Origin: Pirellulales bacterium | GTDB lineage: Bacteria; Planctomycetota; Planctomycetia; Pirellulales; PALSA-1355 | Reading direction: 5' to 3' | NCBI GenBank assembly: GCA_963733035.1 | Contig: CAVTBU010000005.1 | Span: 2,880,001 to 2,944,000, forward strand | DNA length: 64,000 nt | Shown: piece by piece, positions 1,732 through 29,911 of the stretch | How positions within the stretch are numbered: position 1 is the stretch's first letter | Layout of the letters: each line of letters opens with the position of its first letter | The notes under the pieces: model-generated | What the model was told of the DNA's origin: nothing | The model's database searches: none | Seen by the model: the letters and a program-made list of their open reading frames with translations, nothing else | Translations under genes and position numbers: made by a program

Positions 1732-2088
1732 CTACAGCGGATGGCTGCGGGCGCAATCGATGCACCAGGCCGTGTACGGGACGGCCTTCAATCGCGCCCG
1801 AGCGATTTCGCGATCGCAGTCCTCGCAGGTTCCATAGGTTCCCGCCTCGATTCGCTCGAGCGCCGCTTCTACCTGCTCGAGGAGTTGCTCTTCGTTTTGA
1901 GCGAGGACGAGTTGCTCGTCGAGTCCTTCGACATCCTGATCGCCGGGGTGCATCCGCGAAGCGCTATGCCCACCTGCCGACATGATATCTTCGCGGAGCG
2001 CTTCCTCGGTGGAAGTGACGTCGCTAATAAGTCGTTTGCGGAGGGCCAGCAGCCGGGGCTTCTGCTCGCGTTGGTCGTTGAGTTCCAC
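1732..2088 (-). CDS. TraR/DksA family C4-type zinc-finger protein
   Basis: ALERIEAGTYGTCEDCDREIARARLKAVPYTAWCIDCA; AAGGAG RBS before GTG at 2088. Confidence 0.9.
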   Translation of the reverse strand: MELNDQREQKPRLLALRKRLISDVTSTEEALREDIMSAGGHSASRMHPGDQDVEGLDEQLVLAQNEEQLLEQVEAALERIEAGTYGTCEDCDREIARARLKAVPYTAWCIDCARSHPL

Positions 2089-2205
2089 TTGCGTCTCCTT
2101 GGTTTGGCGGATGCTTCGTGACAACCGAGGGTACGACTAACGCGATCCTGCCGGCGCGTTGGTGTAAACATCTTCTTCTTCGACTAGCTTGGCATTGACC
2201 GGGAT

Positions 2206-2221
2206 GGCTATTCTCTTGCCA
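2206..2221 (-). promoter_or_regulatory. Putative sigma-54 (-24/-12) promoter of the TraR/DksA gene
   Basis: Minus strand reads TGGCAAGAGAATAGCC (GG-N10-GC), about 120 bp upstream of the start. Confidence 0.55.
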
Positions 2222-2364
2222 GCCAAGTTGTCGTTCATTTTAGCACCTTCGTTGCGATTCCGCCTTGTTGCGCGAGTTGCGGGCGAACCTTTGACTTTTG
2301 CATCCGGATAGCAAAAAATGCGCCAGACCGAACGTCGCTGACACTGGCAAGGTTGGCGGGCTCA

Positions 2365-2380
2365 CGGCATGTGCTTTGCA
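2365..2380 (+). promoter_or_regulatory. Putative sigma-54 promoter of hsp20-lon
   Basis: CGGCATGTGCTTTGCA, near-consensus YGGCAY-N5-TTGCW, about 80 bp upstream of the ATG. Confidence 0.72.
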
Positions 2381-2459
2381 CCCCGAGGGACTTGGGGTGG
2401 CAGCGAGGCGGATCTCCTTTGTCCCTACCGGTTCCACGGCGTCTGACCCACTGAGCCAC

Positions 2460-2828
2460 ATGGATTCTCACTCGCGGCACTTTGGCGAACTGTTTGTGGC
2501 GGCGGCCGGCTCGTTTGGTCGGCCGTTTTGGCGTCCGGCGGTCGACGCCTATCAAACGGTGCACGGGTGGCTGCTCAAGTATGAGCTGGCCGGCGTGGCG
2601 CCCCAGGACGTCGAGGTGTTGTTGGCAGGGCGGACGGTCACCGTGCGCGGCATGCGCCGCGACTTGCGAGTCGAAGGGAACCAGCAGTCGTATTGCATGG
2701 AGATTTCCTACAACCGCTTTGAGCGATCGTTGGATCTTCCCTGCGAGGTCAACACGATGGACGTCGCCACGCGTTTTCAAGATGGAATGCTCTTCGTGCA
2801 GCTTACGTGCAAGGAGAATCCCCGGTGA
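2460..2828 (+). CDS. Hsp20/alpha-crystallin family small heat-shock protein
   Basis: WRPAVDAYQT...YELAGVAPQDVEV...VTVRGMRRD...MEISYNRFERSLDLP...ATRFQDGMLFVQL; stop overlaps the lon GTG (GTGA). Confidence 0.9.
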   Translation: MDSHSRHFGELFVAAAGSFGRPFWRPAVDAYQTVHGWLLKYELAGVAPQDVEVLLAGRTVTVRGMRRDLRVEGNQQSYCMEISYNRFERSLDLPCEVNTMDVATRFQDGMLFVQLTCKENPR

Positions 2829-5238
2829 ATGCCCCCGAACAAACTCGCACGCTCCCGGTGCTACCGATCAAGAACACGGTGCTCTATCCGTATCTGCTGA
2901 TGCCGTTGTCGGTGGGGCGAGAGCGTTCCATCGCCGCGGTGGAAGCCGCCTCGGCGAGCGAGGATAAGACGATCCTGATCGTGGCCCAACGAGACGGACG
3001 TGTCGAGGAACCCACGTTCGAACAGCTCTATACGGTGGGGACCGAGGCCGTTATCAAGCGGCTGGAGCGGACGACGGGCACGATCCAAATGATCGTGCAG
3101 GGAACGCGGCGGATGGAAATCGTCGAGCCAACCGTGGGCTCTCCGTACTTGCAGGCCAACGCCCGAGAACTGGCCGAGCCAGACGACAAGGGAGACGAGA
3201 TCGACGCGCTGGAGCGCAACATTGTCGATCAGGCCGGGCAAATTCAGGCGATGGCCGGCGCCGAGGCCCAGCTCAGCATCGCGCAAATCTTGTCGCAGTT
3301 CAAAGACCCCCTGCACAAAGCCTATATGTTGGCGTCGATGCTGAGCCTGGAACTGGAAAAGGAACAGCAGCTGCTCGAGGCGAACTCGCGGCTGGCCGCG
3401 CTGCGGCTCATGCATGAATTCCTCGCGCACGAAATGCAGATTACCGAGCTGCGACAAAAGATCGCCAGCCAGGCCCAATCGGAAATGAGCCGCGAACAGC
3501 GCGAGTATCATCTGCGGCAACAACTACGGGCGATCCAGGAGGAGTTGGGAGAAGGGGGCGGCGAGCAGGGGGAGGTCGATGAACTTCGCAGCCGGCTGAC
3601 CGAGACCGAACTGCCCGACGACGTGCGCAAGGAGGCCGAGCGCGAGTTGGGACGCCTCGAACGCTTGCCCACCGCGGCGCCCGACTATCAGATTACGCGT
3701 TCCTACCTCGAGCTGATTCTGGAACTCCCCTGGACCAAGACGACCGAGGACAATCTTGACCTTGCCCGGGCACGGCAAGTTCTGGACGAGGATCACTATG
3801 ACCTCAAGGAGATCAAGGAGCGGATCGTCGAGCAGTTGGCCGTGCTGAAACTCAACCCGGGCGCCAAGGCTCCGATCCTCTGTTTCGTGGGGCCGCCGGG
3901 CGTCGGCAAGACGTCGCTCGGTCAATCGATTGCCCGGGCGCTGGGACGCAAGTTTGAGCGGATGAGCCTGGGCGGCATGCACGACGAGTCGGAATTGCGC
4001 GGGCATCGCCGCACGTATATTGGGGCCATGCCCGGGCGGATTTTGCAGGCGATTCGCCGCGCCGGGGTGCGCAATCCATTGCTGATGCTCGACGAGGTCG
4101 ACAAGCTGGGACGCGACTATCGCGGCGATCCCTCAGCGGCGCTGTTGGAAATTCTCGATCCGGCGCAGAACTTTGAGTTTCGCGACAACTACTTGAATCT
4201 GCCGTTCGACCTGTCGCGGACGTTCTTCATCGCCACGGCCAACACGCTTGATACCATTCCGCGGCCACTGCTGGACCGCATGGAAATCCTGCGGCTCACC
4301 GGTTACAGCGAGGAAGAGAAGGTGCAAATCGCTCGCCGCTACCTGATTGCCCGGCAGCTCAAGCAAACCGGGCTCACGGACGAGCAAATTCAGTTTCCGG
4401 ACGAAACCCTGCGCGAAGTGATCACGCATTACACGCGCGAAGCAGGCGTGCGGCAGCTTGAGCGATTGATCGGCCAGTTGGCCCGCAAAGTGGCTGTTGG
4501 TTTTGCCGAGGAGAAGGGGCAGGCGACAACGATTCGTCCCGAGGATCTGGGCGACATGCTTGGTCCCGAGCGGTTCTTTCTCGAACGCGTTAGAGAAACG
4601 TTGCCCGCCGGCGTGTCCACCGGGCTGGCCTGGACCGAGACCGGCGGCGAGGTACTTTACATCGAGGCGCTCAACTTGCCCGGCGGACACGATCTGATGC
4701 TCACCGGTCAACTGGGTGAAGTGATGCGCGAGAGCGCCGAGCGGCGCAGAGCTACATCTGGTCGCAGGCGGCGGCGCTGGGTATCAGCGAGGAAGCGCTC
4801 AAGTCGTCCGGCGTACACATTCACGTGCCGGCCGGCGCGATTCCCAAGGACGGCCCGTCGGCCGGAGTGGCGATGGCCGCGGCCTTGGCCTCCATGTACA
4901 GCGGAGAACCAACCCGCGGCGACACGGCCATGACCGGCGAAATCACACTCACGGGCCTGGTGCTTCCGGTCGGCGGCATCAAGGAAAAGGTGCTAGCCGC
5001 CCGGCGTGCCGGCATCCAGACGGTCATTCTGCCCGAGCAAAACGCCAAGGACTTACCCGAGCTGCCGGACGAAGTGCGCAAGGAGATGAAGTTCGTGCTG
5101 GCCAAGCGGATCGAGGACGCGCTAAGCGTGGCAATTCCGGCGCTCGCCGAGCGGCTGAGCGGCCGAGCATCGATTCGGTATGCCGATGTGCCCCAAGGAA
5201 ATGGGAAGCAAGCGGGCAGAGAACAGAAGGTGAAGTGA
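2825..5238 (+). CDS. lon: ATP-dependent Lon protease (endopeptidase La); 1-nt indel near 4737
   Basis: LON N-domain [22 protein letters not shown] Walker A, MLDEVDK Walker [14 protein letters not shown]; second frame has PKDGPSAG (catalytic Ser) and VGGIKEK (Lys). Confidence 0.95.
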
Positions 5239-5297
5239 CCAAGCCTTGCGGGCCGCAATGAAATTCAACCAGCCAGCGGTGAGTCGGCGAGAGTGAA

Positions 5298-6257
5298 ATG
5301 ATGAGGCGAGTGCTCCCCTCTTTTCGATTGCGAACTCTGCTCGCCGTAACGGCAATTCTCTGCGTAGTGCTAGCCATGGTTGTTCGACGTTGGCAACAAG
5401 TTAACCGTGACGTGGCCATTGCCCAAACTCTTGAGGCACACGCCAAGAGCGAAGGGCGCATCGCGTCAACGACGCAATTTTCTGGAGCCATCCACAATGG
5501 CTGGTATGTGTGGAAGGATATCGGAGACGGACGCACTACGTATCCGCCGCGAGCGACATTTCTCGAGGCCGCGTGCTTTTGGCTGCCGCTGGGAGAGTTT
5601 CATGTTGCAACTTCATCTTTGACTCGTGTCACGGATGATGACATCCGACTTTGCAACGAGTTTGGTCGAGTTGTTTCATTGTCGATTGGCAACCGATTGA
5701 TCTCTAATGAACAGTTTCAACTTTTCACAGCCACCGACAACGTGACCTATCTGGATCTCGCACGGAACGCACTTACCGACGAAACCGCGATCCGCATTGG
5801 AACCTTCGAGAAGCTTGAGTGTCTCCGCCTAAGCGACACTGGAATTGGGGACGCTGGAGTTTGCGCCATCGCCAACCTGACGAAGCTGCGATTTCTTGAG
5901 TTGGCATTGAATCCAATCAATGACGAAGGGGCGCGTTGCCTAGGGCGGCTCACGGCCCTCCGGTATCTTGATCTCGATCACACGTGGCTGACCGACGCGT
6001 CGGCCGCGGAACTCGGCAAGTTGGGAAACCTTGTTGAGCTTCGGCTAAACGGAACGGATATCTCGGATGCTGGACTAAGACAGTTCGCGGGTTTGAAGAA
6101 TCTCAAAAGGATTACTCTTAGCAACACGCGTATTACGAATGACGCGATTGCAATTCTCGAAAAGCTGCCAGGTTTGAGGGAGGTGAACGTGGATTCTGGG
6201 GATGTCGATCACGCTCAAGCGGCTGCACTAGAGCAAAGGCTATCCAAGCGTCCTTAA
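5298..6257 (+). CDS. Leucine-rich repeat protein with an N-terminal membrane anchor (planctomycete type)
   Basis: N-terminal FRLRTLLAVTAILCVVLA, then 24-aa LRRs (LxxLxLxxTxIxDxG). Confidence 0.85.
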   Translation: MMRRVLPSFRLRTLLAVTAILCVVLAMVVRRWQQVNRDVAIAQTLEAHAKSEGRIASTTQFSGAIHNGWYVWKDIGDGRTTYPPRATFLEAACFWLPLGEFHVATSSLTRVTDDDIRLCNEFGRVVSLSIGNRLISNEQFQLFTATDNVTYLDLARNALTDETAIRIGTFEKLECLRLSDTGIGDAGVCAIANLTKLRFLELALNPINDEGARCLGRLTALRYLDLDHTWLTDASAAELGKLGNLVELRLNGTDISDAGLRQFAGLKNLKRITLSNTRITNDAIAILEKLPGLREVNVDSGDVDHAQAAALEQRLSKRP

Positions 6258-6276
6258 CAGTCGAGTACTGCGAACT

Positions 6277-7323
6277 CTACGGCACGGCAATTCCAAACCG
6301 AACGCACAGCTTTGCCAATAAGTCCCAAGTCCCTTCCTCCACGAAGATTCCTTCACGCAGGCGGGCGGCTCGGCGTTCGAGTTCGATCTCGCCTGGAACG
6401 TAGACTTTCTCGACGCCTTCGATGGTTGGCGAGCTGTGGATGTAGTCGGCTAGCGCGGCTACCTCGTGGCGGAAATCGGCTAGCGGCCGGAAGCGCTCGA
6501 CGTCGACGGCGACCAGGAAAAAGCCATCGCCCGGGTATTGCCGATCGGGCTGGCAGCCGCCGGCTCCGCTAAGGATGCCGGCCAGGATGTCGATCATCAG
6601 GCTCAGCCCGAATCCTTTGTACGCCACGATGCCGCCGATGGGGACCAGGGCGCCGGGCGGGTCGGCATACAGTTGTCCCGCATCGTTGGTCGTTTGTCCT
6701 TTGGCGTCCATCAGCCAGCCGGTTGGGACAGGCTTACCGGCTTGAAACGCGGCGCGCACTTTACCCTCGGGCGCGACGGTCGTTGCCATGTCGAGCACGA
6801 TCGGGTGCTCGCCGCCGGAGGGCACGGCGATAGAAATGGGGTTCGTGGAGAGTCGTCGGCCAAGTCCTCCAAACGGCGGGACGACCTGAGCTCCGCCGCC
6901 GGAATTGACCACCGCGATGCCGACGAATCCGGCTTTTGCGCACATTTCGGTGTACGTCGCGATGCGTCCGGTGTGATGGCAGTGGCAGGCAGTGACCGCA
7001 CCGACGCCGGTGGCCTTGGCGATTTCCATGGCCAGGAGCGTTGCCTGCCGGCCAATGACCTGGCCAAAGCCGCCGCCACCGTCGACGACCGCTCCGGCCG
7101 CGAAGCGGTTGACCACGGTCATCTCGGCCGCCGGGACGATCAAGCCGCTTTGAATGCCATCGACGTATTGCAGCACGCGGAGCACGCCGTGCGAGTCGTG
7201 TCCGGCGAGATTGGCGTTGATCAGGTGCTCGGCGACGATGTGCGCAAGTTCGGCCGGTGCGCCGGCCGAGGCGAGTAAGTTAGTGGCGAGACGTTGAAGA
7301 TCCGGAGCGTCAAACGTGGGCAT
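6277..7323 (-). CDS. Ldh_2 family (type 2 malate/L-lactate dehydrogenase-like) oxidoreductase
   Basis: ANLAGHDSHG, HHTGRI, LSTNPI, LDMATT, YKGFGL, VYVPGE motifs. Confidence 0.9.
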   Translation of the reverse strand: MPTFDAPDLQRLATNLLASAGAPAELAHIVAEHLINANLAGHDSHGVLRVLQYVDGIQSGLIVPAAEMTVVNRFAAGAVVDGGGGFGQVIGRQATLLAMEIAKATGVGAVTACHCHHTGRIATYTEMCAKAGFVGIAVVNSGGGAQVVPPFGGLGRRLSTNPISIAVPSGGEHPIVLDMATTVAPEGKVRAAFQAGKPVPTGWLMDAKGQTTNDAGQLYADPPGALVPIGGIVAYKGFGLSLMIDILAGILSGAGGCQPDRQYPGDGFFLVAVDVERFRPLADFRHEVAALADYIHSSPTIEGVEKVYVPGEIELERRAARLREGIFVEEGTWDLLAKLCVRFGIAVP

Positions 7324-7505
7324 GGGGACATCTGCATGTGGATCGACGAACTTCGTAAAGTTCGCGGGGTGATTTCCTGCGTCAGTCTAGCTGGATCGCG
7401 CGGCCGGTGAAAGTTGACACTGAACAACGGCAGGGTCATGATTCAGTTTCGTTGTTCGCTCGGTCCCGGCATTTCTTTGGCTCGCGATTGGCCCAGGCGG
7501 AGTTC

Positions 7506-8496
7506 ATGCGTCGAGGAATTTCACTGTTATTGTTGGTCGGGCTGCTGATGGCCGGGTGTGGCGCGGCCAACTCGGCGTCGAACGGCGGCGCGAAGCGCGA
7601 CAAGCCGCTTATCGCGGTCATTCCGAAGGCGGTTTCGCACGAGTTCTGGAAGTCGGTGCATGCCGGCGCGGTTCACGGTGCCGAGGCGGCCGACGTCGAC
7701 ATCATTTGGAAGGGTCCCATCACCGAGAGTGATCGCGAGGCACAGATCAATCTGGTGCAGGACTTCATCGCCCAGGGTGTCGATGGCATTTGCCTGGCGC
7801 CGCTCGATTCGCAGGCTTTGATTCCGGTGGTCCACGAGGCCAAAGTCGCCGGCGTTCCGGTGTTGATTTTCGACAGTGGACTGGACGACACGGCCGACAT
7901 CGTCAGCTTCGTGGCAACCGACAATTATCACGGCGGGCAGATCGCCGGCCGCCACTTGGGCGAGCTGCTGGGCGGCAAAGGAAAAGTGATCGTGCTGCGG
8001 CAAGTCGTCGGCAGCCAGAGCGCCGAACGTCGCGAGCAGGGATGCATCGACGCACTGACCAAGGAATTTCCCGGAATCGAAATCCTCTCGTCGGGCGAAT
8101 ATGCCGGCGACACGGCCGACAAGGCGCTCGTCAAGTCGCAGCAGCTTCTGCTGAACTTCGGCAATCAGGTCGAGGGCATCTTCACGTCCAGCCAGCATGT
8201 GGCCACGGGCATGTTGCGGGCGCTTGAGGAACAGGGACTGGCCGGCAAAGTGAAGTTCATCGGCTTTGACGCCGGTCCGGAACTCGTGGCCGCGCTGGCA
8301 ACCGGCAAGATGCACGGCATCGTCTTGCAAGATCCCGTTCGGATGGCCGAGTTGGCCGTAACCACGCTCGCCGATCGCATCCGCGGCGAACACGTCGAGC
8401 AGCCGCATTAGCACCGGTGAAACCTTGGCCACGCCGGAGAACATGCACGATCCGGCAATCAAGAAACTGCTGGAACCGGAGCTGTACGAGGAGTAG
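7506..8496 (+). CDS. Sugar ABC-type (RbsB-like) substrate-binding lipoprotein; 1-nt indel near 8404
   Basis: Lipobox LMAGC; IAVIPKAVSHEFWKSVHAGA, VATDNYHGG, IGFD, LQDPVRM; other frame continues RISTGETLATPENM...LEPELYEE*. Confidence 0.88.
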
Positions 8497-8544
8497 CCGT
8501 CGGAGGAGTTCGCCCCTCGTGCGAATCGAGTGCGGCTGTGTGGA

Positions 8545-9024
8545 TTAAGCCCGCTTCTCCAACTGCTTGCCGGTGACCATCATGTAGATCGAATCGCCGA
8601 GAGCGACTTGCTTGCCTTCGTCGTTGGTGACCACCGCGTCGGTGTGAATGATCTGGCGACCCATGCGCACGACGCGGGCATCGCAGAAGATTTTGCCGCT
8701 GGAGACGGGGCGGAGGTATTTGAGCCGCAGGTCGACCGAAACCATTCGTGCGCCATGCTCATCGCGGAGAGCGCGATGTTCGGGCGTCAGGAGTATGGAA
8801 TGCGCAATCGCCGTATCGACTAGCGAGGCGATGGCGCCGCCGTGGATGATGCCGGCCGGCTGACAAATGTCTTCGCGCCAACTCATGGAGAGCCGAGCTC
8901 GGCCGGGGTCGATTTCCAAGAGCTCCATCCCCATCAGTTGGTTGAAGGGAAAATTGCGAAAGAACGCAAACAGGGCTTGGCGATCCTTTTCCAGCGACTG
9001 GTCATCGGACGCTGACTCACTCAT
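8545..9024 (-). CDS. PaaI family (hotdog-fold) thioesterase
   Basis: PFNQLMGMEL...GIIHGGAIASLVDTA...VSVDLRLKYLRPV. Confidence 0.9.
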   Translation of the reverse strand: MSESASDDQSLEKDRQALFAFFRNFPFNQLMGMELLEIDPGRARLSMSWREDICQPAGIIHGGAIASLVDTAIAHSILLTPEHRALRDEHGARMVSVDLRLKYLRPVSSGKIFCDARVVRMGRQIIHTDAVVTNDEGKQVALGDSIYMMVTGKQLEKRA

Positions 9025-9174
9025 GGTCGTTATTTCCGTGGAAGTACTTCGATAGGGGACTGGGTCCAACTTATCAGAACGCAGGGCCGTTGGGGACCGC
9101 GGCCGCGGCGATTTGCACTCGCTCCGGGCTGCCAGGCAGGCGATAATCGGCGGCGAACTTTACAATCAATGCCG

Positions 9175-9234
9175 GCCCGAAATGCGAGCGCGGAGAGGTC
9201 ACGCGCGTTCCCCTTGCTTGCCGTTCGGGTTTGT
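9175..9234. repeat. Degenerate REP-like inverted repeat
   Basis: Arms GCCCGAAATGCGAGCGCGGA and TCCCTTGCTTGCCGTTCGGGT pair imperfectly; intergenic between divergent genes. Confidence 0.4.
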
Positions 9235-9278
9235 ATCGGGGCTAGGTCGTTGCCTTCTTGCATCAGGAGTTCCCTTCC

Positions 9279-9845
9279 ATGAAATACGGCTCGTCGCTCT
9301 TGGCTTTTGCATTGGTTGCCGCGGCAGGTATTTCCACCGCGTTTGCCGAACCCTACACCGTCGACGCCATTCACTCGACCGTGCTATTCCGAATCAAGCA
9401 CATGAACACCAGCCATGCCTGGGGTCGGTTTAACGAAATGCAAGGCACGGTCGACCTCGACGGCGCCCAGCCCACGGTGGACGTGACGTTGGTGGTCGAC
9501 AGCATTGACACGGCCAACGCCAAGCGCGACGAGCATCTCGAAGGCCCCGATTTCTTTAACGCCAAACAGTTCCCCACGATTGCGTTTAAGAGCAACAAGA
9601 TCACCAAGGTCGACGACGATCACTACGACGTCGAGGGCATGCTCACGCTGCACGGCGTCAGCAAGCCCATTGCGGTGCAACTGGAACGCACCGGTACCGC
9701 CCGTACGCCGATGACCGGCAAGATCACCGGCTATGCCACGGAGTTCAAAATCAAGCGCAGTGACTACGGCATGAAGCTGATGGTTGGTCCGATCGGCGAC
9801 GAGGTGCTGTTGATCGTGAGCCTCGAGTGTGCGGCGAAGAAATAG
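9279..9845 (+). CDS. YceI family periplasmic lipid/polyisoprenoid-binding protein
   Basis: Signal peptide; YTVDAIHSTVLFRIKH, GRFN, SIDTANAKRDEHL, DFFNAKQFPTI, LTLHGVSK, RSDYGM. Confidence 0.93.
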   Translation: MKYGSSLLAFALVAAAGISTAFAEPYTVDAIHSTVLFRIKHMNTSHAWGRFNEMQGTVDLDGAQPTVDVTLVVDSIDTANAKRDEHLEGPDFFNAKQFPTIAFKSNKITKVDDDHYDVEGMLTLHGVSKPIAVQLERTGTARTPMTGKITGYATEFKIKRSDYGMKLMVGPIGDEVLLIVSLECAAKK

Positions 9846-9876
9846 TCTCGCACGACGCGGGAGAGGAACCAGCGTA

Positions 9877-10740
9877 ATGTTCACTTGGGGCGAAATGCTG
9901 GCCGGCGTGGTCTTGTCGGCCGCGGCGACCGGCGGCGTGCTGTTTGTTGGCTGGCGACTGGCGCGGCACCGCCATTCGGCTCGCGACAGTCGCTCCTGGG
10001 CCGGACCGCCGGCCGTGGCAGCGGGCTTTGTCGCCGGCTACCTGGTCCTGTTTGGCTGGCCTGGTTTTCCGCCGCTCGATGCGGTCGATTGGCTGCTGAT
10101 GCTGGCGGTTCCGCTGGCGGCGCTGGGCTTGGCCGATTCGTACTTTCGGGTGCCGCCGCCGGGACGCGTGCTGCTGATCGCGCTGGCCGTGCCCGCCAGC
10201 TTTCTGCTCTTGGCTCGGCCACTGCTATCGCTGGCGGGGCAAGACGAACTGTCGTTGCAGCTGTTCGTTGCCACGGGAGTGACCGTGGCGGTGCTGGTTG
10301 CAACCGACATGCTGGCGGCTCGAAGTTCGGCCGGCAGGTTCAGCGCGATTCTGCTTGCCGTTGCTATACCGTCGGCCGTGGTGTTGGGTTGCTCGGGCAG
10401 TGCCCGGCTGGGAATGATCGGCGTGTTGCTGGCTGCCACGCAAGCCGGAGCGCTCGGCATGAATATCGTGCTTGGCCGCGCCGGTTTGGGGCGCGGCATT
10501 GTCGTCGTGTTCGGGACGCTGTTGGCCGGATTGCTACTTTGTGGAAGCCTGTACGCGGAGTTATCGACGAGCAACGCGATGTTGCTGGCGGCCGCGCCAA
10601 ACATGGCTTGGCTGGGCAGGCATGGCCCGCGACGCTTCGGTTGGCTCACCCACGTGGCCATCCAGGTCGGGCTTGTGTTGGCGGTTGCCGGCCTGGCGGC
10701 GGTCCGGGCATGGAACGCGCTTCCGGATGACGCGTGGTGA
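9877..10740 (+). CDS. Hypothetical polytopic membrane protein
   Basis: About 10 hydrophobic segments; directly follows the YceI gene. Confidence 0.7.
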   Translation: MFTWGEMLAGVVLSAAATGGVLFVGWRLARHRHSARDSRSWAGPPAVAAGFVAGYLVLFGWPGFPPLDAVDWLLMLAVPLAALGLADSYFRVPPPGRVLLIALAVPASFLLLARPLLSLAGQDELSLQLFVATGVTVAVLVATDMLAARSSAGRFSAILLAVAIPSAVVLGCSGSARLGMIGVLLAATQAGALGMNIVLGRAGLGRGIVVVFGTLLAGLLLCGSLYAELSTSNAMLLAAAPNMAWLGRHGPRRFGWLTHVAIQVGLVLAVAGLAAVRAWNALPDDAW

Positions 10741-10756
10741 TGTCAGCCGCCCGGGC

Positions 10757-11758
10757 TCAGTCGGCTGGCGGAACGAGCACGGCAGCGCCGCTCAGCCGAC
10801 CCTCGCGAAGATCGGCCAATGCTTCGTTCGCTTTTTCCAGGGGATAGGGAGTCGCTTGCGGCCGCACGCCCGCCTGGGCGGCGAGGGGCAGGAATTCATC
10901 GCCGTCGCGACGGGTGAGGTTGGCGACCGATCGCACGATGCGCTCGCCCCAGAGAAGTTTGTACGGGAACTGAGGGATGTCGCTCATGTGGATGCCGGCA
11001 CAGACAACCGATCCGCCCTTGGCCGTGGCCGCCAAAGCCGCGGGGACGAGCGACCCGACCGGAGCATAAATAATGGCCGCATCGAGCAATTCCGGGGGCA
11101 ACGCCGTGGAGTCGCCGCTCCAGTCGACGCCCAATTGTCGGGCGAAAGCCTGGGCCTGCTGATCGCCCGGCCGCGTAAACGCAAAGACGTTCCGACCTTG
11201 GAACTGGGCAACCTGCGCAATCAAATGGGCGGCGGCTCCGAACCCATAGATGCCCAGCCGCTTTGCGTCGCCGGTCATGGCCAGCGAGCGGTAGCCAATC
11301 AGACCCGCGCAGAGCAGGGGCGCCGCTTCGATGTCGCCGTAGTGCGCGGGAATGGGGAAACAGAATTGCTCGTTGGCGACTGTGAATTGGGCGTAGCCGC
11401 CATCTCGCGTGTAGCCTGTGAACTCTGGCCGGTCGCAGAGGTTTTCTTGACCGGCCCGGCAGTAGCGACATTTGCCACAAGTATTGCCGAGCCAAGGAAC
11501 TCCCACGCGATCGCCCGGCGCGAAGCGACGCGTACCCGGCCCAACGTCCGCAACCTCGCCGACAATTTCATGACCGAGGATCAGCGGGAGCTTCGGATCT
11601 GGCAGTTCGCCGTCCACCACGTGCAGGTCGGTCCGGCAGACACCACAGGCCAACACTCTCAAGAGCACCTCGCCCACGCCGCAGGTTGGCTTGGGCAACT
11701 GGCGAGCCTGAAGTGGCGAATGCGGCTGGTCGAGCACCATTGCCAGCATGGTTGTCAT
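10757..11758 (-). CDS. Zinc-dependent alcohol dehydrogenase family protein
   Basis: CGVCRTDLH, GHEIVG, CGKCRYCRAGQENLC, APLLCAGLIGYR, GIYGFGAAAH. Confidence 0.93.
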   Translation of the reverse strand: MTTMLAMVLDQPHSPLQARQLPKPTCGVGEVLLRVLACGVCRTDLHVVDGELPDPKLPLILGHEIVGEVADVGPGTRRFAPGDRVGVPWLGNTCGKCRYCRAGQENLCDRPEFTGYTRDGGYAQFTVANEQFCFPIPAHYGDIEAAPLLCAGLIGYRSLAMTGDAKRLGIYGFGAAAHLIAQVAQFQGRNVFAFTRPGDQQAQAFARQLGVDWSGDSTALPPELLDAAIIYAPVGSLVPAALAATAKGGSVVCAGIHMSDIPQFPYKLLWGERIVRSVANLTRRDGDEFLPLAAQAGVRPQATPYPLEKANEALADLREGRLSGAAVLVPPAD

Positions 11759-11869
11759 TGTGTCACACCAAGCGGTTCGTTGATTGTCATTCGCACAGCT
11801 GGCGCGGAGATCGCACATCGATTATGCACTTACATCGCAAAACTTCGAAATTGGCTCCATTTTCGCACT

Positions 11870-11885
11870 CGGCATGAAATTCGCT
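11870..11885 (+). promoter_or_regulatory. Putative sigma-54 promoter of the BON-domain gene
   Basis: CGGCATGAAATTCGCT (GG-N10-GC). Confidence 0.55.
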
Positions 11886-11938
11886 AGATGGTGGGCGTCA
11901 TGTCGACAAGCCGCCCTCGCACCCGACAGGATTCGAAA

Positions 11939-12247
11939 ATGATTGCACCCCGCTATGCGTGCCAGCGCCAGTTTGTATCCGATCGCGACCGCGAATTGTA
12001 TGCCGCAGCCACCGAGGTGCTCGCCATGAGCAAGTACACGGCGCTACGGCAACTGACATGTCGGGTGCAGGGGGGCATGGTAGAAATTTCGGGTACCGTT
12101 GCAACTTTTTACTTGAAGCAGTTGGCCCAGGCGGCCATGTTGCGACTTCGGCCGGAGGGCAGAGTACGGAATCTGGTGGAAGTGACGGGTGAGCCATGGG
12201 CTGTCGTGGCGACCAGTTGCGCGCCAGCCCCGGCCTCGGCGGGATAA
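11939..12247 (+). CDS. Small BON-domain protein (planctomycete type); alternative starts at 11888 and 11900
   Basis: ALRQLTCRVQGGMVEISGTVATFYLKQLAQ...VRNLVEV; AGGA precedes ATG 11939. Confidence 0.8.
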   Translation: MIAPRYACQRQFVSDRDRELYAAATEVLAMSKYTALRQLTCRVQGGMVEISGTVATFYLKQLAQAAMLRLRPEGRVRNLVEVTGEPWAVVATSCAPAPASAG

Positions 12248-12299
12248 GGCAGAGAAAATACAATTTAGAACGTCTACGGCCGCCGGGTCTAACGATCTG

Positions 12300-12330
12300 C
12301 CGCCGTTTTCGTTTTCCAGACGGCGGGTTT
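12300..12330. terminator. Possible intrinsic terminator hairpin between the convergent BON and USP genes
   Basis: CCGCCGT (12300-12306) / ACGGCGG (12320-12326) stem followed by GTTT. Confidence 0.35.
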
Positions 12331-12355
12331 GAGTGTGTCGATGCGGCGACAAGCC

Positions 12356-13271
12356 CTAACCGACTTGCGGCACAACCAGCACGGAACACGGGGCATGATT
12401 GAGGACCGCTTCGGTCGTGCCGCCGAGCAGCGTGGTGGTCAGCCAGTTTTTGTGATGGACGCCCACGACGACCACGTCGATGTTCTCCTTGGCGACGGTT
12501 TCGAGGACAGCCTTGGCCGGTTCCCCTTCGGTCACCACCGGACTGCAGTGTTCGCATACGCCGGGCAGCTTTTTTGAAAACTCGCTCATTTGGTCTCGCA
12601 CGGCTTGCAGTTCCTGGTCGTGTTCCCGAGCCCAGGCCTGCACCAACTCCTCGACATCAGGGCTGCGGGCCTGTTGCTGAAGCCAGTCGGGCACCTTGCC
12701 GGCAAACATCGAGGGAACCACCGTCAGCGTATGGCAGGTGGAGCTTTCGGGCCACGAAAAGGCGCTAAGAACTTCAGCCTGGCGACATCCCTTCTCCGGG
12801 TTTTCGCACGCCACGAGTACATTTGCGCCGGGATGCCCCAGGTTCTTCTTGCCGGCCCTGGCGACCCAAACCGGAACTTTTGCAGCGTGCACCACAGCCC
12901 GCGAAACGCTTCCCAGGAGCATGCGTTCGAGCGTACCCAGTCCGCGGGCGCCGACGACGATCAACTCCGCGCCCCACTCGTCGGCCGCCGTGACGATGCC
13001 GTGCCGCGCGTCGTGGGACCCGGTGATTGTTTGCACGCCCGACCGCAGCGATTCGGGCAGCTGCTTGCGAGCCTCTTCGAACACGGCGTCGACCAATCCC
13101 TGCCGCGCTCGAGTGATCACCTCGCTACTGGCCGTAGTGACCAATGACGAAGTGTCGGGCGGTGCGCAGGTAGAAAGCTAGCTCATCGTGCTCGGCATTT
13201 AAGAGTTGCCCCACTTGGGCAACCGCATCAAAGCAGCCGGACGATCCGTCGACGGCAAACAGCACTTTCAT
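12356..13271 (-). CDS. Tandem-domain universal stress protein; 1-nt indel near 13168
   Basis: N-terminus MKVLFAVDGS in one frame; IVVGARGLGTLERMLLGSVSRAVV and a second domain GEPA...VVVG...LLGGTTEAVLNHAPCSVLVV in the other. Confidence 0.9.
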
Positions 13272-13320
13272 TGCACTCAATCTCCCAAACGAACGGGCTG
13301 CACGACCGCCAGCGCCGCGG

Positions 13321-13725
13321 CTACTTCAGGTCCAAGCTGGCCATGCGGACGTCGCGCACGTATTTGTGGCACTCGACGCAACGCAATGTAACGAGATTGA
13401 AGGCCTTCGTCGCCGCGTCGAGGTTCTTTTTCTTAGCCGCGTCTGCGAGCGCGTCAGAAGCAGTGCGGAACTTCTTGCTGTACTCGATGTATTGCGGCGT
13501 CTGCAAAACCTGCCAGGTTTCGGCCAGGCTGAGCAGGCTCATATCCTGGGCATTTTTGGCGATCTTGTCGAAGTCGCCGGACACCAGGCCTTCGATGACG
13601 TTTTGCGAGTGATGGAGTTTCACTTCCATGAAGTCGCTTAGGTCTCCCTTTTGTTTCGCATCGCTGGTGGAAATGGCGACCATGCATGCAACCGCCAAGA
13701 TGCTTCCCGTGGCTACTCGTTTCAT
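13321..13725 (-). CDS. Secreted monoheme cytochrome c, cytochrome c'-like (C-terminal CxxCH)
   Basis: Signal peptide, helical body, RCVECHKYVRD near the C-terminus. Confidence 0.75.
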   Translation of the reverse strand: MKRVATGSILAVACMVAISTSDAKQKGDLSDFMEVKLHHSQNVIEGLVSGDFDKIAKNAQDMSLLSLAETWQVLQTPQYIEYSKKFRTASDALADAAKKKNLDAATKAFNLVTLRCVECHKYVRDVRMASLDLK

Positions 13726-13791
13726 CGATCCGCTCCCATGGATTTGATCGCGGTGTTGAGACCGCGTCTGAACTGCGATTGAAAACTCGGT

Positions 13792-14229
13792 TTACTCGGG
13801 GGCATGCGTGGCATGCTTGACCGTCAACACGGGGCACTTCGCATAGCGCATCACCGACTCCGCCACACTCCCCATCAGCACGCGCATCAAGCCCGTGCGA
13901 CCATGCGTGCCGATGACGATCAGGTCGGCCTTCTCATCTTCGGCAACACGAACGATATCCTCGGCGGCGGCGCCCATCACCAGCCGATGTTCGAACTTGA
14001 CATTCTTATCGGGGGGCACGACGGCGTCGAGCATTTTTCGCACTTCGGGATTGGGATACTCGGGCTGCGCGAAATACATCTCCCCGCCGGCATAAGGCAT
14101 CGGCATTTCCTCGACGTGGGCAATCACCAAAACCGCGCCAGAATCGCGGGCCAGGGCCGTGGCGTACTCCAGAGCGCTTTCGCTGGCCGGAGAGAAGTCC
14201 GTCGCGAAAAGGATTTTTTGGTAGTGCAT
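13792..14229 (-). CDS. Universal stress protein (single domain)
   Basis: KILFATDFS, DLIVIGTHGRTGLMRVLMGSVAESVMRYAKCPVLTV. Confidence 0.95.
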   Translation of the reverse strand: MHYQKILFATDFSPASESALEYATALARDSGAVLVIAHVEEMPMPYAGGEMYFAQPEYPNPEVRKMLDAVVPPDKNVKFEHRLVMGAAAEDIVRVAEDEKADLIVIGTHGRTGLMRVLMGSVAESVMRYAKCPVLTVKHATHAPE

Positions 14230-14327
14230 CGCTTCGTACCTTTATGACTGAATTGGTTATCTACCCGACAGGTCGAAGAACTCTCAGACGGTTATGGCTT
14301 GCGCGGATCGACTACCCCTCGAAGTGA

Positions 14328-14343
14328 AGCAAACTCAGTGCCA
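14328..14343 (-). promoter_or_regulatory. Sigma-54 promoter of the usp-cytochrome-usp operon
   Basis: Minus strand reads TGGCACTGAGTTTGCT, a perfect TGGCAC-N5-TTGCW match, about 100 bp upstream of the ATG. Confidence 0.8.
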
Positions 14344-14544
14344 TGGCCAAGCGGCCAACGCAACATTCGCGTCGCCGCGCTGGGTCCGCGACCTCGGCAG
14401 TCGTCAGCGCCTGAGGCACATTTACCGGGCGGCAGTCCAAATCTATCGCGCAATCGGCGTTTTTCGTGCGTAAATCCCTCACTACGAAGAGAATTCGGAT
14501 TCACCGTTGGCGGTGTTTGATCATCCATAGTGAAGTATACTCGA

Positions 14545-14582
14545 TATGTGCGTATTCGCACATACGGGCACATTTCCGCACG
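14545..14582. promoter_or_regulatory. Putative enhancer (UAS) for a sigma-54 activator
   Basis: Palindrome TATGTGCG-TATT-CGCACATA (14545-14564) plus a second CGCAC half-site 20 bp downstream, between two divergent sigma-54 motifs. Confidence 0.55.
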
Positions 14583-14672
14583 GGCGGGGGGCGCCCGGGG
14601 TTCGATTGCCTTCGGGGAAACTCGCCGGGAAATCACGGCACTTTCCTGCGTTCGGGTCCTCGGGGTCGTTCT

Positions 14673-14688
14673 CGGCACGGAGGTTGCG
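14673..14688 (+). promoter_or_regulatory. Putative sigma-54 promoter of the response regulator (autoregulation)
   Basis: CGGCACGGAGGTTGCG, near consensus, 40 bp upstream of ATG 14729. Confidence 0.65.
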
Positions 14689-14728
14689 AAGCAGTGTGTT
14701 CACCCACTTTCAGCGCGCGAGTTTCGCC

Positions 14729-16127
14729 ATGAATTACGATCCCAAGAAGATTGATCTGATGCTCGTCGACGACGATGCTGACTTCCGCGAGACGGTTGCG
14801 CGGCGATTCATGCGGCGCGGCTTTCAGGTGCAAGAAGCGACGCACGGCGAGCAGGCATTGCAATTGGCCGATTTGCGCCAATTCGACGTCGTCGTGCTCG
14901 ATATGGTGATGCCCGGCATGTCGGGGATTCAGGTTCTTGAGCAGCTCAAGCTCAAGCACCCCGAGTGCGAGGTGATTTTGCTCACCGGCCAAGGCACGAT
15001 CGAAACGGCCGTCCAGGCGATGAAGCTGGGAGCATACGACTTTTTAACGAAGCCGTTTCCGTTGGCCGAACTGGAAGTCCTCATCGAAAAGGCCTACGAA
15101 CGCCGGCAACTCCGCAAGGAGAACGTGCAGCTCAAGGCCGTGCTCAAGCGCGAACAGGCGACGCCCGAGATTATTGGGAAGTCGGGGGCGATGCAGGAGG
15201 TCTTTCGGTTGATCGAGCGCGGGACCGACGGAAAAGTCGATCTTGATTCAGGGTGAAAGCGGCACTGGCAAGGAGCTGGTGGCCAAGGCTCTGCAGCGCG
15301 CCAGCAATCGGGCCGATAAACCGATGGTCACGATCAATTGCGCCGCGCTGCCTGAAACGCTGCTTGAAAGTGAGCTATTTGGGCATGAGAAGGGGGCGTT
15401 TACCGGCGCGATTGCCACCAAACCAGGTCTCTTTGAAGTGGCCGACGGCGGCACGCTGTTTATTGATGAAATCGGCGAATTGGCCGGCCCGCTGCAGGCG
15501 AAGTTATTGCGCGTGCTGGAAGACGGTTCGATGCGGCGCATCGGGTCGCTCAAAGAGCGGCGCGTCGACGTGCGATTGCTCGCGGCGACAAATCGTGACA
15601 TGGACCAGGAAGTGGCCGAAGGGCGGTTTCGCGAGGACTTGTACTACCGAATCAATGTGATGTCGCTGCAATTGCCTCCGCTGCGCGAACGACACGGCGA
15701 CATTCCCCTGATCGTGCGGCACATTTTGGGCGACGAATGGACCGTGACGTCCGACGCCCTGCGGGCACTTGAGTCTTATCATTGGCCCGGCAACGTGCGG
15801 CAATTGATGAACGCCATCGAGCGCGCGCAGATCATGGCGGACGGCAAGTGCATCGACATCGACGCGCTTCCGCGTGAAATTTCGGCCGGAAAATGCCCAA
15901 GCGCGCAGCGGACCGAAGCCCATCGTCCGGACGGAGAGTTCCTGGCCGACATCCAGCGGGCGCACATCATCGAGGTGCTCAAACGCGAACGCGGCAACAA
16001 AGCTCGGACCGCTCGGGCGCTGGGCGTTAATCGTCGTAGCCTATACCGGCTGCTCGAAAAATATCAGATCGAGCTGCCGTCCGAAAATGAGGGCGGGCAC
16101 GTGACGGCCATGGCGACGAAGTCCTAG
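14729..16127 (+). CDS. Sigma-54-dependent response regulator (NtrC/AtoC family: REC-AAA+-Fis HTH); 2-nt deletion near 15220
   Basis: REC: LVDDD, VLDMVMP, LTG, FLTKP; AAA+: [76 protein letters not shown]. Confidence 0.94.
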
Positions 16128-16384
16128 AGAACTTGCCTGGCCGGGCAACGAACTTGGCAGTTCGTAACGCCCGCCGTTCAAAGCGAGAGCCCCGGTTTAC
16201 GCGAAGGCACCGGCGGCTATTCCGAGTTGCGTGGCCGCACATGTGACGTGCGGCTGTGTCAGGCCGACGCGCCCGTGGACGACGCAGCGGGGCGTTTTTC
16301 GCGTGCCACGCCTTGCGCAACAGGTTGCCGCACAAGCAATTAGGCGACCATCGTGGGTCGGTAGTGAGCAGCACATCTGGAGAG

Positions 16385-16400
16385 TGGCACGGTGGATGCA
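16385..16400 (+). promoter_or_regulatory. Putative sigma-54 promoter of the small membrane protein gene
   Basis: TGGCACGGTGGATGCA (GG-N10-GC), about 50 bp upstream of the ATG. Confidence 0.7.
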
Positions 16401-16448
16401 ATGGGTTTGAATGGTCCGTCGTTATTCCATTGAAGGGAGCAATTAGTC

Positions 16449-16676
16449 ATGGCAACCGTTGGCCCAACCCGCAGCAGTCTCGTCGATAAACTCACGTGGT
16501 ATAAGAGCACGGCTCGTCACAGCGTCTGGGATCGGTTTACGAAGGACGAGCAGGAACGGATGCTTGCCGACGATATGGCGGCCGGAACACGGGTGTCGAT
16601 CGAGTTGACAGCCTTGATCGCCACGGGGATGGTGCTTTGCATCGTAACTGTCTTGGCGGTCGTGTTGCTGCGGTAG
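16449..16676 (+). CDS. Small hypothetical protein with a C-terminal transmembrane helix (75 aa)
   Basis: GAAGGGAG RBS, its own promoter motif, hydrophobic C-terminus; fits between convergent genes without overlap. Confidence 0.7.
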   Translation: MATVGPTRSSLVDKLTWYKSTARHSVWDRFTKDEQERMLADDMAAGTRVSIELTALIATGMVLCIVTVLAVVLLR

Positions 16677-16680
16677 ACAA

Positions 16681-17925
16681 CTAGCGTGTTCCGGCTCGTT
16701 TGAGCAGCACGAAGAACGAGCTGCCAGCGCCGACTTCCGATTCGACCCACACGCGACCCTGCTGCTGTTCGACCATGGTCTTGACGAAATAGAGACCCAG
16801 GCCCGAGCCGGGGATTTCGCGGTGGTTTGGAAGCCGGCGAAATGGGACGAAGACGCGGGCCAGTTCCTCGGAAGGAATGCCGGGCCCATTATCGGAAATG
16901 CTGAATACGCAATCGCCATCGCGAAGTTCGCAGTCAATTTCAATGCGGCCGTGGCGTTTGTCGCTGAACTTCACGGCATTCGACAGCAGGTTGTAGAACA
17001 CCTCGCGAATTCGGGTGCGATCGCCAAGTACCTTCGGCATGTCGTGGGCGACCGTCAATTCGATCTTCTTCTGTTTGACGAGTGGTCGCACTTGATCGAC
17101 AGCCTCGGCCATGACTTGGTTCATATCCACGATGTCCTGGGGAATGTCGGCATGAAGCGACATGGTCGAGTGCAGGAGTTCGTCGATGGTTGTGCTCATG
17201 CGAAAGGCCCGTTGACGTGCCGCTTCGATCAACTGAGAGGCTTCGCTGGGCATCTGGTCGCGGAATTCGTCGAGGGCTTCGTCGCACAGATTTGCCATGG
17301 TGGCTAGCGGTGTTTTCAGGTCGTGCGACGTTAGCTGGGCAAATTGCCGCAATTCGGCGTTGGCCTGATAAACCAGATCCAGCGCCTTGCGAAGACTTTG
17401 CGTGGCTTGGCTGAAATACGCTTCGAGCGTGAGCCCGATGTCGAGGAAAACCGCCTTCTGCAGCGATAGTAACTGATCGGCGCAGATCTTGGCCGGACCG
17501 TCTAAATGCGCCGAGAGCTCGCGCAAGCAGAATTGCAGATACTGGTTGTAGGCTCCCAAGAAGATTTGCGGGCTAATGCCGACTTGGGCATGTGCATCGC
17601 CGACACGGTAGCGGCGATCGATGTAATCGTCGTTCCATTCCGCCGCGAGCATCGACTCCAAATGCAACTGCTGTGCCAGTTTAAGTCGTTCGACGAGTTG
17701 CGGATCACGCAGGAATTGAGCCGTTTCCTCAAAGGCAAAGAGGTGCTTGTAGAACGATTCGACGAAATCGAGGCCGCGTGCGTTCAGCGCGGGGGCCAGC
17801 TCGCGGAGTCGCTCGCGGTCCGCTTCGGCGATATCGAGAAAGGCCAACTTGCGTGCCAGCGATTTGATTTGAGACGGGTGCGGCGACGCATCGTTGTTTA
17901 GCGACGTTTCGGACGGCGAGGTCAT
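16681..17925 (-). CDS. Globin-coupled (protoglobin-domain) sensor histidine kinase
   Basis: Globin: DFVESFYKHLFAF...VERLKLAQQLHLESML...DDYIDRRYRVGDAHAQVGISPQIFLGAY; HisKA SHDLKTPL; HATPase NLLSNAVKF, DNGPGI, GSGLGL; no TM segment. Confidence 0.9.
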   Translation of the reverse strand: MTSPSETSLNNDASPHPSQIKSLARKLAFLDIAEADRERLRELAPALNARGLDFVESFYKHLFAFEETAQFLRDPQLVERLKLAQQLHLESMLAAEWNDDYIDRRYRVGDAHAQVGISPQIFLGAYNQYLQFCLRELSAHLDGPAKICADQLLSLQKAVFLDIGLTLEAYFSQATQSLRKALDLVYQANAELRQFAQLTSHDLKTPLATMANLCDEALDEFRDQMPSEASQLIEAARQRAFRMSTTIDELLHSTMSLHADIPQDIVDMNQVMAEAVDQVRPLVKQKKIELTVAHDMPKVLGDRTRIREVFYNLLSNAVKFSDKRHGRIEIDCELRDGDCVFSISDNGPGIPSEELARVFVPFRRLPNHREIPGSGLGLYFVKTMVEQQQGRVWVESEVGAGSSFFVLLKRAGTR

Positions 17926-29700: not shown

Positions 29701-29911
29701 CGAAGGCGTGCAGCGTGTTGTGATGCACGAAGACCTGAATCGGATTCTGGGCGGGCAACAGATGGGCCGCGTGGTGAATCTCCGCTTCGAGAGAACGAAG
29801 TCGTTCGGGCAGCTTGCCCGACGCCGGCAGATATGCCTCAATCGTCGCTGGATGAATCACGGTGTGAGGTGGACCCTTGTTCTCAGGTTCCGAAGCGGAT
29901 GCGGCTTGCAC
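26743..29911 (-). CDS. dabA: DUF2309/UPF0753 probable inorganic carbon transporter subunit DabA; 1-nt indel near 26918
   Basis: [74 protein letters not shown]; true C-terminus ...[15 protein letters not shown]...EPAA* is in another frame. Confidence 0.9.

Follow-up and report, generated by a model that had tools for sequence, protein, structure and literature searches.

The closest described counterpart of the system considered here, a soluble globin-coupled histidine kinase and an NtrC-type activator encoded side by side in a Pirellulales bacterium (GCA_963733035.1; the 64,000-nucleotide stretch of contig CAVTBU010000005.1 from 2,880,001 to 2,944,000, called the window below), is the NmpRSTU system of Myxococcus xanthus. 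As that system is described, the protoglobin kinase NmpU is switched on by O2 and then keeps the hybrid kinase NmpS silent; when O2 is lacking, NmpS passes phosphate to the NtrC-type regulator NmpR, and usp, cbb3 oxidase and the system's own operon are induced via sigma-54 (PMC11841059). NmpU does not phosphorylate NmpR, and homologues of nmpSTU were noted in Planctomycetes in 2018 (PMC6211767). The globin kinase AfGcHK of Anaeromyxobacter sp. Fw109-5 (PDB 5ohe) is likewise activated by O2 and inactive when deoxy, and signals to a dual-receiver protein (PMC8697598). In Planctomycetia, an enrichment of sigma-54 sites is reported upstream of the genes for universal stress proteins, NtrC-family regulators and ATP-dependent proteases; the passages on these regulators attribute them to ZraR without naming an enhancer, and globin and cbb3 have no occurrences in the main text (PMC12316311). 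A literature survey covering titles and abstract openings, with few subscription papers, returned nothing on the clade of the window's kinase (type B below), on the enhancer TGTGCG-N4-CGCACA or on an O2-inhibited globin kinase.

A sequence-only reading of the window had proposed a globin-sensed, sigma-54-driven hypoxia regulon. We find that the globin kinase, the enhancer-binding protein and sigma-54 are linked by synteny, conserved promoters, a conserved enhancer and a gene set of low-oxygen type, but that two proposed members, traR and the window's hsp20-lon genes, do not belong. As far as can be judged from DNA, the sigma-54 regulon is conserved and real, and on balance, with modest confidence, we favour the view that it is a low-oxygen regulon driven in one step by an oxygen-inhibited globin kinase.

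Promoters, enhancer and regulon genes

The activator (Table 1) has the REC-AAA+-HTH architecture that had been assigned to it, as confirmed by Pfam; what had been overlooked is that its reading frame is broken after 15216 in this assembly. At this point two additional bases are present in contigs from three of four sequencing runs (X1, X2 and X4, one of these runs being of a near-identical strain), so the break is most likely an assembly error, and on these frame-restoring contigs we reject a pseudogene. The one RNA run, X3, yielded short contigs only. The assembly seems prone to indel errors, with frameshifts also in lon (about 4740), usp2 (13145-13170) and a planctomycete cytochrome gene (19670). 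The activator genes of relatives are mostly intact, and GAFTGA or GSFTGA is present at 42 of 42 orthologue loci. The recognition helix is conserved across orthologues and is unique among the seven helices recovered by pattern in the window's own genome, which, as had been anticipated, contains rpoN, together with roughly a dozen enhancer-binding proteins.

All six GG-N10-GC strings previously proposed as sigma-54 sites lie where they had been placed. Four of them, before the activator, the usp operon, the BON-like gene and the small membrane protein gene, are kept upstream of orthologues (at least 9 of 11 matches to the sigma-54 consensus, no more than 450 bp upstream), but the traR site and the poorly conserved hsp20-facing site are not. 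Sites were also ranked with a matrix from whose training each gene family was left out in turn, against a background of 4400 gene upstream regions, and the fraction of these scoring as high is 0.0016 for the activator, 0.0055 for usp, 0.014 for hsp20, 0.025 for the small membrane protein, 0.029 for the BON-like gene and 0.134 for traR; the traR site (2206-2221) is thus at chance level. The upstream region of the kinase gene, our negative control, has a match of at least 9/11 in just 2 of 29 relatives. The earlier impression that such motifs are scarce past 18 kb largely holds, the exceptions being one intergenic, correctly oriented site scoring at least 12 (42047, 12.6) and one 9/11 match before 32171.

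The activator promoters of relatives share a dyad upstream of the sigma-54 site: an unsupervised count found GTGC-N6-GCAC in 17 of 27, compared with a mean of 0.14 and a maximum of 2 after shuffling. The NmpR binding site, GCGCA-N5-TGCGC, occurs in 0 of the same 27 promoters, and its core GCA-N5-TGC in 4 (1.8 in shuffles). We trained an enhancer matrix on relatives only, with a seed pattern taken from an alignment that included the window; scored with it, the window's copy, which lies between the divergent activator and usp promoters, reaches 22.4, the top of the whole genome. The activator probably regulates its own gene. In BON-like promoters the spacing of enhancer half-sites is fixed, with 8 of 11 having one at 60-61 bp and 5 of 11 one at 80-83 bp.

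Genome-wide, the enhancer and sigma-54 pair precedes 18 of 5549 predicted genes. These include a cbb3 oxidase operon with a copper ATPase, ybaK-usp, another usp, acs-PDH, a phosphoribosyltransferase, a DUF2934 gene, a second cytochrome c'-like gene accompanied by a metal ATPase, and a second hsp20 (C5:1789084-1789554) distinct from that of the window. Probably some of the 18 are chance. Of 30 cbb3 loci fetched, the window's own genome among them, 29 could be scored, and 12 of these have the pair upstream of the first gene; for the phosphoribosyltransferase gene the pair holds in 2 of 2; most usp paralogues in five relatives lack enhancer and sigma-54 sites of their own. Borderline pairs precede a flavoprotein that by eye resembles sulfide:quinone oxidoreductases (C5:1673669-1674928) and a His-rich small protein (C5:1777600-1778010).

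Within the window, the two usp genes and the cytochrome c'-like gene reported near the activator are present. The label BON for the small gene beyond them finds no Pfam match, but BON is carried by 21-56% of members among its Atlas neighbours. The 75-aa membrane protein is planctomycete-restricted, with conserved Trp and Tyr motifs, and stands beside globin kinases in several gene orders; family searches gave no assignment for it, and it could be a feedback modulator. We rejected it as a type-B-specific partner, homologues being found also in genomes with other wirings. Upstream of the alcohol dehydrogenase gene no positionally conserved sigma-54 site was found in relatives. Regulator and globin-kinase loci elsewhere (L034, L044, L141, L144 and L155) repeatedly hold hsp20, CBS, BON-like and release-factor-like (baeRF) genes, which suggests a wider core regulon.

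Probable globin inputs to one regulator

The kinase was correctly recognized from sequence as globin-coupled: Pfam confirms protoglobin, HisKA and HATPase domains, with the protoglobin domain PF11563 above cut-off. By alignment to AfGcHK, HemAT and GsGCS, its haem pocket has the distal Tyr59 (119 of 120 homologues) and the proximal His112 (120 of 120), and it probably binds O2 at the haem. The HisKA residues His201 (in SHDLKTP), Asp202 and Thr205 are present in 120 of 120 homologues, and the N, G1 and G2 boxes are in place. In a monomer model a single helix, residues 144-224, runs from the globin to HisKA, the confidence of the linker being moderate. It is the sole protoglobin of its genome. 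It is 26% identical to a planctomycete NmpU-like kinase, the globins falling in separate clades, and among 300 phylum-wide genomes only two distant type-B copies were found, each within 1 kb of a related regulator. Thus, the type-B clade appears to be largely confined to Pirellulales.

We surveyed the wiring of the regulator in 61 related genomes, taking at least 59% identity as the threshold for orthology; the per-genome homologue searches scored a limited number of candidates, and the genomes are kin and often incomplete. The regulator is carried by 43 of the 61 and the type-B kinase by 31, all of which also carry the regulator. In 27 of 30 relatives the two genes lie within about 1.5 kb of each other, and this adjacency is kept in varied orientations across at least eight families and one distant family. 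Twelve genomes have the regulator without a type-B kinase, and 11 of these have an alternative: 8 have NmpU-like and NmpS-like genes (type A) and 4 encode a fusion of a globin and an NmpS-family PAS-kinase (type C), with one genome counted in both groups and one in neither. Upstream of the regulator gene, six of the 12 retain this enhancer and promoter, with one more being borderline.

Kinase and regulator could of course be mere neighbours, the sigma-54 regulon being real and answering to another kinase. The kinase belongs to a subfamily other than the usual partners of NtrC proteins, its gene lacks a sigma-54 promoter, and two relatives keep the genes apart; the adjacency in different orientations, the 31/31 co-occurrence and the filling in of other globin kinases where type B is missing nevertheless make this very improbable.

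In type C, a globin of the NmpU lineage is joined through PAS to the NmpS-family kinase (L135 in G047, L150 in G058, L153 in G042 and L156 in G036), a third, single-protein input. One further genome, G056, in which no protoglobin match was found, has at L147 (C12) a paralogous regulator with the same recognition helix and a strong enhancer beside a PAS kinase and a hemerythrin gene; the enhancer thus tracks the recognition helix, not the globin, and this PAS kinase is possibly a fourth input. Hemerythrin genes adjoin the regulator in several relatives as well. In the regulator tree, a quick FastTree tree from which four near-identical rows were left out, two type-A regulators are nested within a set of 14 from type-B genomes (support 99); repeated swapping of inputs, as suggested by this nesting, depends on such quick trees.

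Neither NmpS nor NmpT was found at the window locus. A full-length NmpS-like kinase is present in 3 of the 31 type-B genomes vs 8 of the 12 others; two queries found no NmpS-family kinase in 19 of 30 type-B relatives, including near-complete genomes of the same genus, and full, fused or partial matches in the other 11.

Linker register and the sign of the response

The characterised globin kinases are O2-activated, a problem of sign that the sequence-only reading overlooked. A kinase that is on with O2 and is paired directly with an activator would give the wrong response to hypoxia, so a direct pair needs the opposite polarity. A regulon that includes cbb3 oxidase is expected to be on in low oxygen, and with no inverter in place the simplest arrangement would be a kinase that is on when deoxy.

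A candidate cause lies in the signalling helix. In AfGcHK the proximal His99 and the phosphorylated His183 are 84 residues apart (PMC8697598), and type-A kinases are collinear with it at Tyr45, His99 and His183. All 8 aligned NmpU-like kinases have this same distance of 84 residues, against 89 in the window's kinase, and from the linker anchor to the phosphorylated His it is 26 in 10 of 10 type-A vs 31 in 117 of 120 type-B kinases. A sister clade has 38, one heptad more, and 29 of the 40 that could be parsed among 150 distant representatives are in that register. In engineered photoreceptors, changes of linker register are described as able to invert kinase output (PMC6798134; PMC11164954).

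In the circuit that we favour, the soluble kinase would bind O2 at its haem and act on the neighbouring regulator as a net kinase when deoxy and as a net phosphatase when O2-bound. Once phosphorylated, the regulator would bind TGTGCG-N4-CGCACA, which lies about 95-210 bp ahead of the -24/-12 promoters, and would activate transcription by sigma-54 polymerase from its own promoter and from those of the usp - cytochrome c' - usp operon, the BON-like gene and probably the gene for the small membrane protein. Unlinked targets, at which the sites are seen and the function is deduced, would be the cbb3 oxidase with its copper ATPase, further usp genes, the second hsp20, the phosphoribosyltransferase, YbaK and acs-PDH. 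In other Pirellulales the same regulator would be driven by an NmpU/T/S-like relay, in which an O2-activated kinase shuts off a second kinase. With the type-B kinase replacing that relay, the opposite polarity is expected, and the five-residue shift of the signalling helix is its proposed cause. That this shift lets a single O2-inhibited kinase do the job of the NmpU-NmpT-NmpS inverter, and that Pirellulales have swapped at least three globin inputs (relay, globin-PAS fusion and type-B kinase) onto one conserved sigma-54 regulator and enhancer, we hold to be evenly balanced between right and wrong.

Several observations weigh against the one-step, O2-inhibited kinase. To our knowledge no sign is established for the +5 register. 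In 2 of 30 relatives the kinase and regulator genes are unlinked, and in one they stand 5 kb apart; three type-B genomes also hold a full-length NmpS-like gene, and the Fisher p=0.0004 for 3/31 vs 8/12 overstates the difference, the genomes being related and incomplete. The window's own genome has a divergent, unlinked NmpS-family receiver-kinase on C8. The kinase H-box, SHDLKTP, is of another subfamily than that of NmpS-like kinases (AHESGNA), yet the regulator's receiver changes little from one wiring to another, so direct pairing draws no support from co-variation. Among the predicted targets, the ybaK pair holds in 1 of 4 genomes, the prkA enhancer is conserved in 0 of 5, and an acs orthologue was found in 0 of 5. 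Finally, inverted phytochrome variants are described as spanning several registers, and the register rule is thus not universal (PMC11164954). Two further lines were not used in either direction, namely a weak Thr/Ser preference at one helix-1 position of the receiver, which is confounded by kinship, and a complex prediction of kinase core and receiver domain that gave 'no answer' (0.26 against a mark of 0.32).

The C8 kinase itself (C8:509383-510502; about 6383-7502 of L148) has a degenerate receiver, is frameshifted and was not found in three genomes of the same genus; its neighbours are a CheB/CheR-like gene, a BON-like gene, a NarL-type regulator and a traR paralogue.

The kinase might instead be O2-activated like AfGcHK and act indirectly, as in NmpRSTU, by silencing an unlinked second kinase or draining a phosphate sink, with a second protein phosphorylating the regulator. 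All characterised globin kinases that we found are O2-activated (PMC8697598), the window's genome has the divergent NmpS-family gene on C8, a lone receiver gene lies between kinase and regulator at one sister-clade locus, and the kinase survey of relatives is partial. We nonetheless judge this unlikely, as no NmpS-family kinase was found in the 19 type-B relatives mentioned above and the linker register is unlike that of AfGcHK. An enhancer-marked PAS hybrid kinase on C9, considered as a conserved intermediate, was rejected, no full-length orthologue being found in five genomes (best, 36% over most of the length).

An O2-activated kinase could also phosphorylate the regulator directly if phosphorylation were inhibitory and the unphosphorylated form active in low oxygen. 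HoxA and HupR are regulators of this kind, and such a scheme would fit both the adjacency and the absence of NmpS with no change of polarity in the kinase. But in other genomes NmpU/S-like relays accompany this same regulator (about 63-77% identity), and there the Myxococcus logic, as described, needs activation by phosphorylation (PMC11841059), and no receiver signature clearly separates the wirings. We therefore think an inhibited regulator quite improbable.

Direct wiring with a different signal (NO, CO or haem redox state), or with a general stress or stationary-phase output, deserves similarly little weight. Cytochrome c'-like and usp genes fit NO or general stress, and in G056, where no protoglobin match was found, the paralogous regulator, whose recognition helix and enhancer are the same, is paired with a PAS kinase. 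AfGcHK responds to CO and Fe(III) too (PMC8697598). On the other side, the O2-recognising Tyr is all but invariant in type-B homologues, cbb3 oxidase is a conserved target, and hemerythrin genes stand beside the regulator in several relatives.

If the one-step, O2-inhibited kinase is correct, the value of the system lies in a testable prediction, an oxygen-inhibited globin kinase, opposite to the characterised ones. It would also provide a naturally occurring test of what determines whether a sensor kinase is switched on or off by its signal, with two globin kinases that have the same haem residues, the same downstream regulator and a fixed five-residue difference in the linker, one acting through an inverter and the other apparently without. 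The activator, enhancer and targets together make up a predicted low-oxygen regulon for an abundant planctomycete order.

Other features of the window and comparison with known systems

Table 1. Features of the regulon and its surroundings, in window coordinates
Feature	Coordinates	Strand	Evidence and remarks
Overlapping TTGAC-N17-AAAAAT element facing hsp20-lon and sigma-54-like site (about 2311-2325, -) facing traR	2291..2327	.	Outside the regulon, without enhancer
Zn-dependent alcohol dehydrogenase, divergent from the BON-like gene	10757..11749	-	Pfam, synteny; membership uncertain
Sigma-54 promoter of the BON-like gene	11870..11884	+	10/12 relatives; enhancer half-sites at 11792 and 11812
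BON-like small protein	11900..12247	+	Open reading frame, Atlas neighbours; start 11900 or 11939 inferred from promoter position
usp2, tandem universal stress protein	12356..13271	-	Pfam, synteny; frameshifted near 13145-13170 as assembled
Cytochrome c'-like protein, C-terminal CxxCH	13321..13725	-	Pfam PF01322 just below cut-off
usp1, single-domain universal stress protein	13792..14229	-	Pfam, synteny
Sigma-54 promoter of the usp1 - cytochrome c' - usp2 operon	14329..14343	-	15/20 relatives
Enhancer (upstream activating sequence) TGTGCG-N4-CGCACA, common to the divergent activator and usp promoters	14546..14563	.	Dyad in relatives; weaker second site about 22 bp downstream
Sigma-54 -24/-12 promoter of the activator	14673..14687	+	27/27 relatives; leave-family-out score 18.4
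Sigma-54 enhancer-binding response regulator (REC Asp58, AAA+ GAFTGA, Fis-type HTH)	14729..16127	+	Pfam, motifs, orthologues in 43/61 genomes
Sigma-54 promoter of the small membrane protein	16385..16399	+	13/18 relatives; enhancer half-sites scattered only
75-aa single-helix membrane protein of no known family	16449..16676	+	Homologue survey; usually adjoins a globin kinase
Globin-coupled histidine kinase, type B clade, 414 aa	16681..17925	-	Pfam, residue alignment, homologue motif count, structure model

The TraR/DksA, Hsp20 and Lon genes at the left of the window are present (Pfam), but we reject their membership in the regulon. No enhancer was found in the window's traR-hsp20 interval (best score 5.9), among ten sites of the traR-facing type just one has an enhancer-level score upstream, and the hsp20-facing sigma-54 site scores well in only 6 of 22 relatives. 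In four relatives the traR-hsp20 block lies 86-135 kb from the kinase. The interval does have conserved back-to-back sigma-70-like and sigma-54-like elements at 2291-2327: the minus-strand sigma-54-like site is conserved in 8 of 10 traR-bearing loci, and the TTGAC-N17-AAAAAT element is seen in 8 loci. This overlap suggests that the hsp20-lon and traR promoters may be mutually exclusive, under some other regulator. Elsewhere in the window, a DabA-family inorganic carbon transporter subunit (26006-29860, minus strand) is encoded by a 1284-aa frame that exceeds the length of the Pfam model.

The gene set had been likened to the DosR regulon. DosS and DosT are haem-GAF sensors, and DosR is a NarL-type regulator that works without sigma-54, so the likeness is one of output only. 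That part stands, since the outputs of DosRST and of the Burkholderia cenocepacia lxa locus include several universal stress proteins, a small heat-shock protein and a cation-transporting ATPase, with phospholipid-binding proteins, a Zn alcohol dehydrogenase and cytochromes also listed at lxa (PMC3721108); here the small heat-shock protein would be that of C5, not the window's. The cargo in general resembles that of hypoxia regulons as these are described (PMC11841059; PMC3721108). With a protoglobin kinase and an AAA+ regulator in the window, no regulatory component is shared with DosRST or lxa, and NmpRSTU is the right comparison.

The window's circuit resembles NmpRSTU in having a soluble protoglobin kinase and an activator of NtrC type, in sigma-54 promoters accompanied by a dyad enhancer and, as predicted from sites in our case, in autoregulation and in usp and cbb3 oxidase with a P-type ATPase among the targets, and NmpU/T/S-like relays lie beside the same regulator in other Pirellulales. 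It differs in lacking NmpT and NmpS at the locus, in a kinase outside the NmpU/AfGcHK lineage with a linker longer by five residues, in its enhancer (GTGC-N6-GCAC vs GCGCA-N5-TGCGC), and in the direct pairing that we propose, NmpU not acting on NmpR. AfGcHK shares with the window's kinase the globin-HisKA-HATPase architecture, the distal Tyr and the proximal His, but its globin matches that of a planctomycete NmpU-like kinase at E 5.9e-21 and that of the window's kinase at only 1.4e-8. FixL-FixJ, in which a one-step haem kinase active without O2 leads to cbb3 expression, is like the proposed circuit in polarity and unlike it in sensor (PAS vs globin) and regulator (LuxR-type vs sigma-54 activator). 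The suggestion that such a circuit had gone undescribed in planctomycetes thus holds in part: the design is already known from NmpRSTU, and nmpSTU homologues in the phylum are on record, but the wiring with a type-B kinase, as read from the genomes compared here, differs from that of NmpRSTU.

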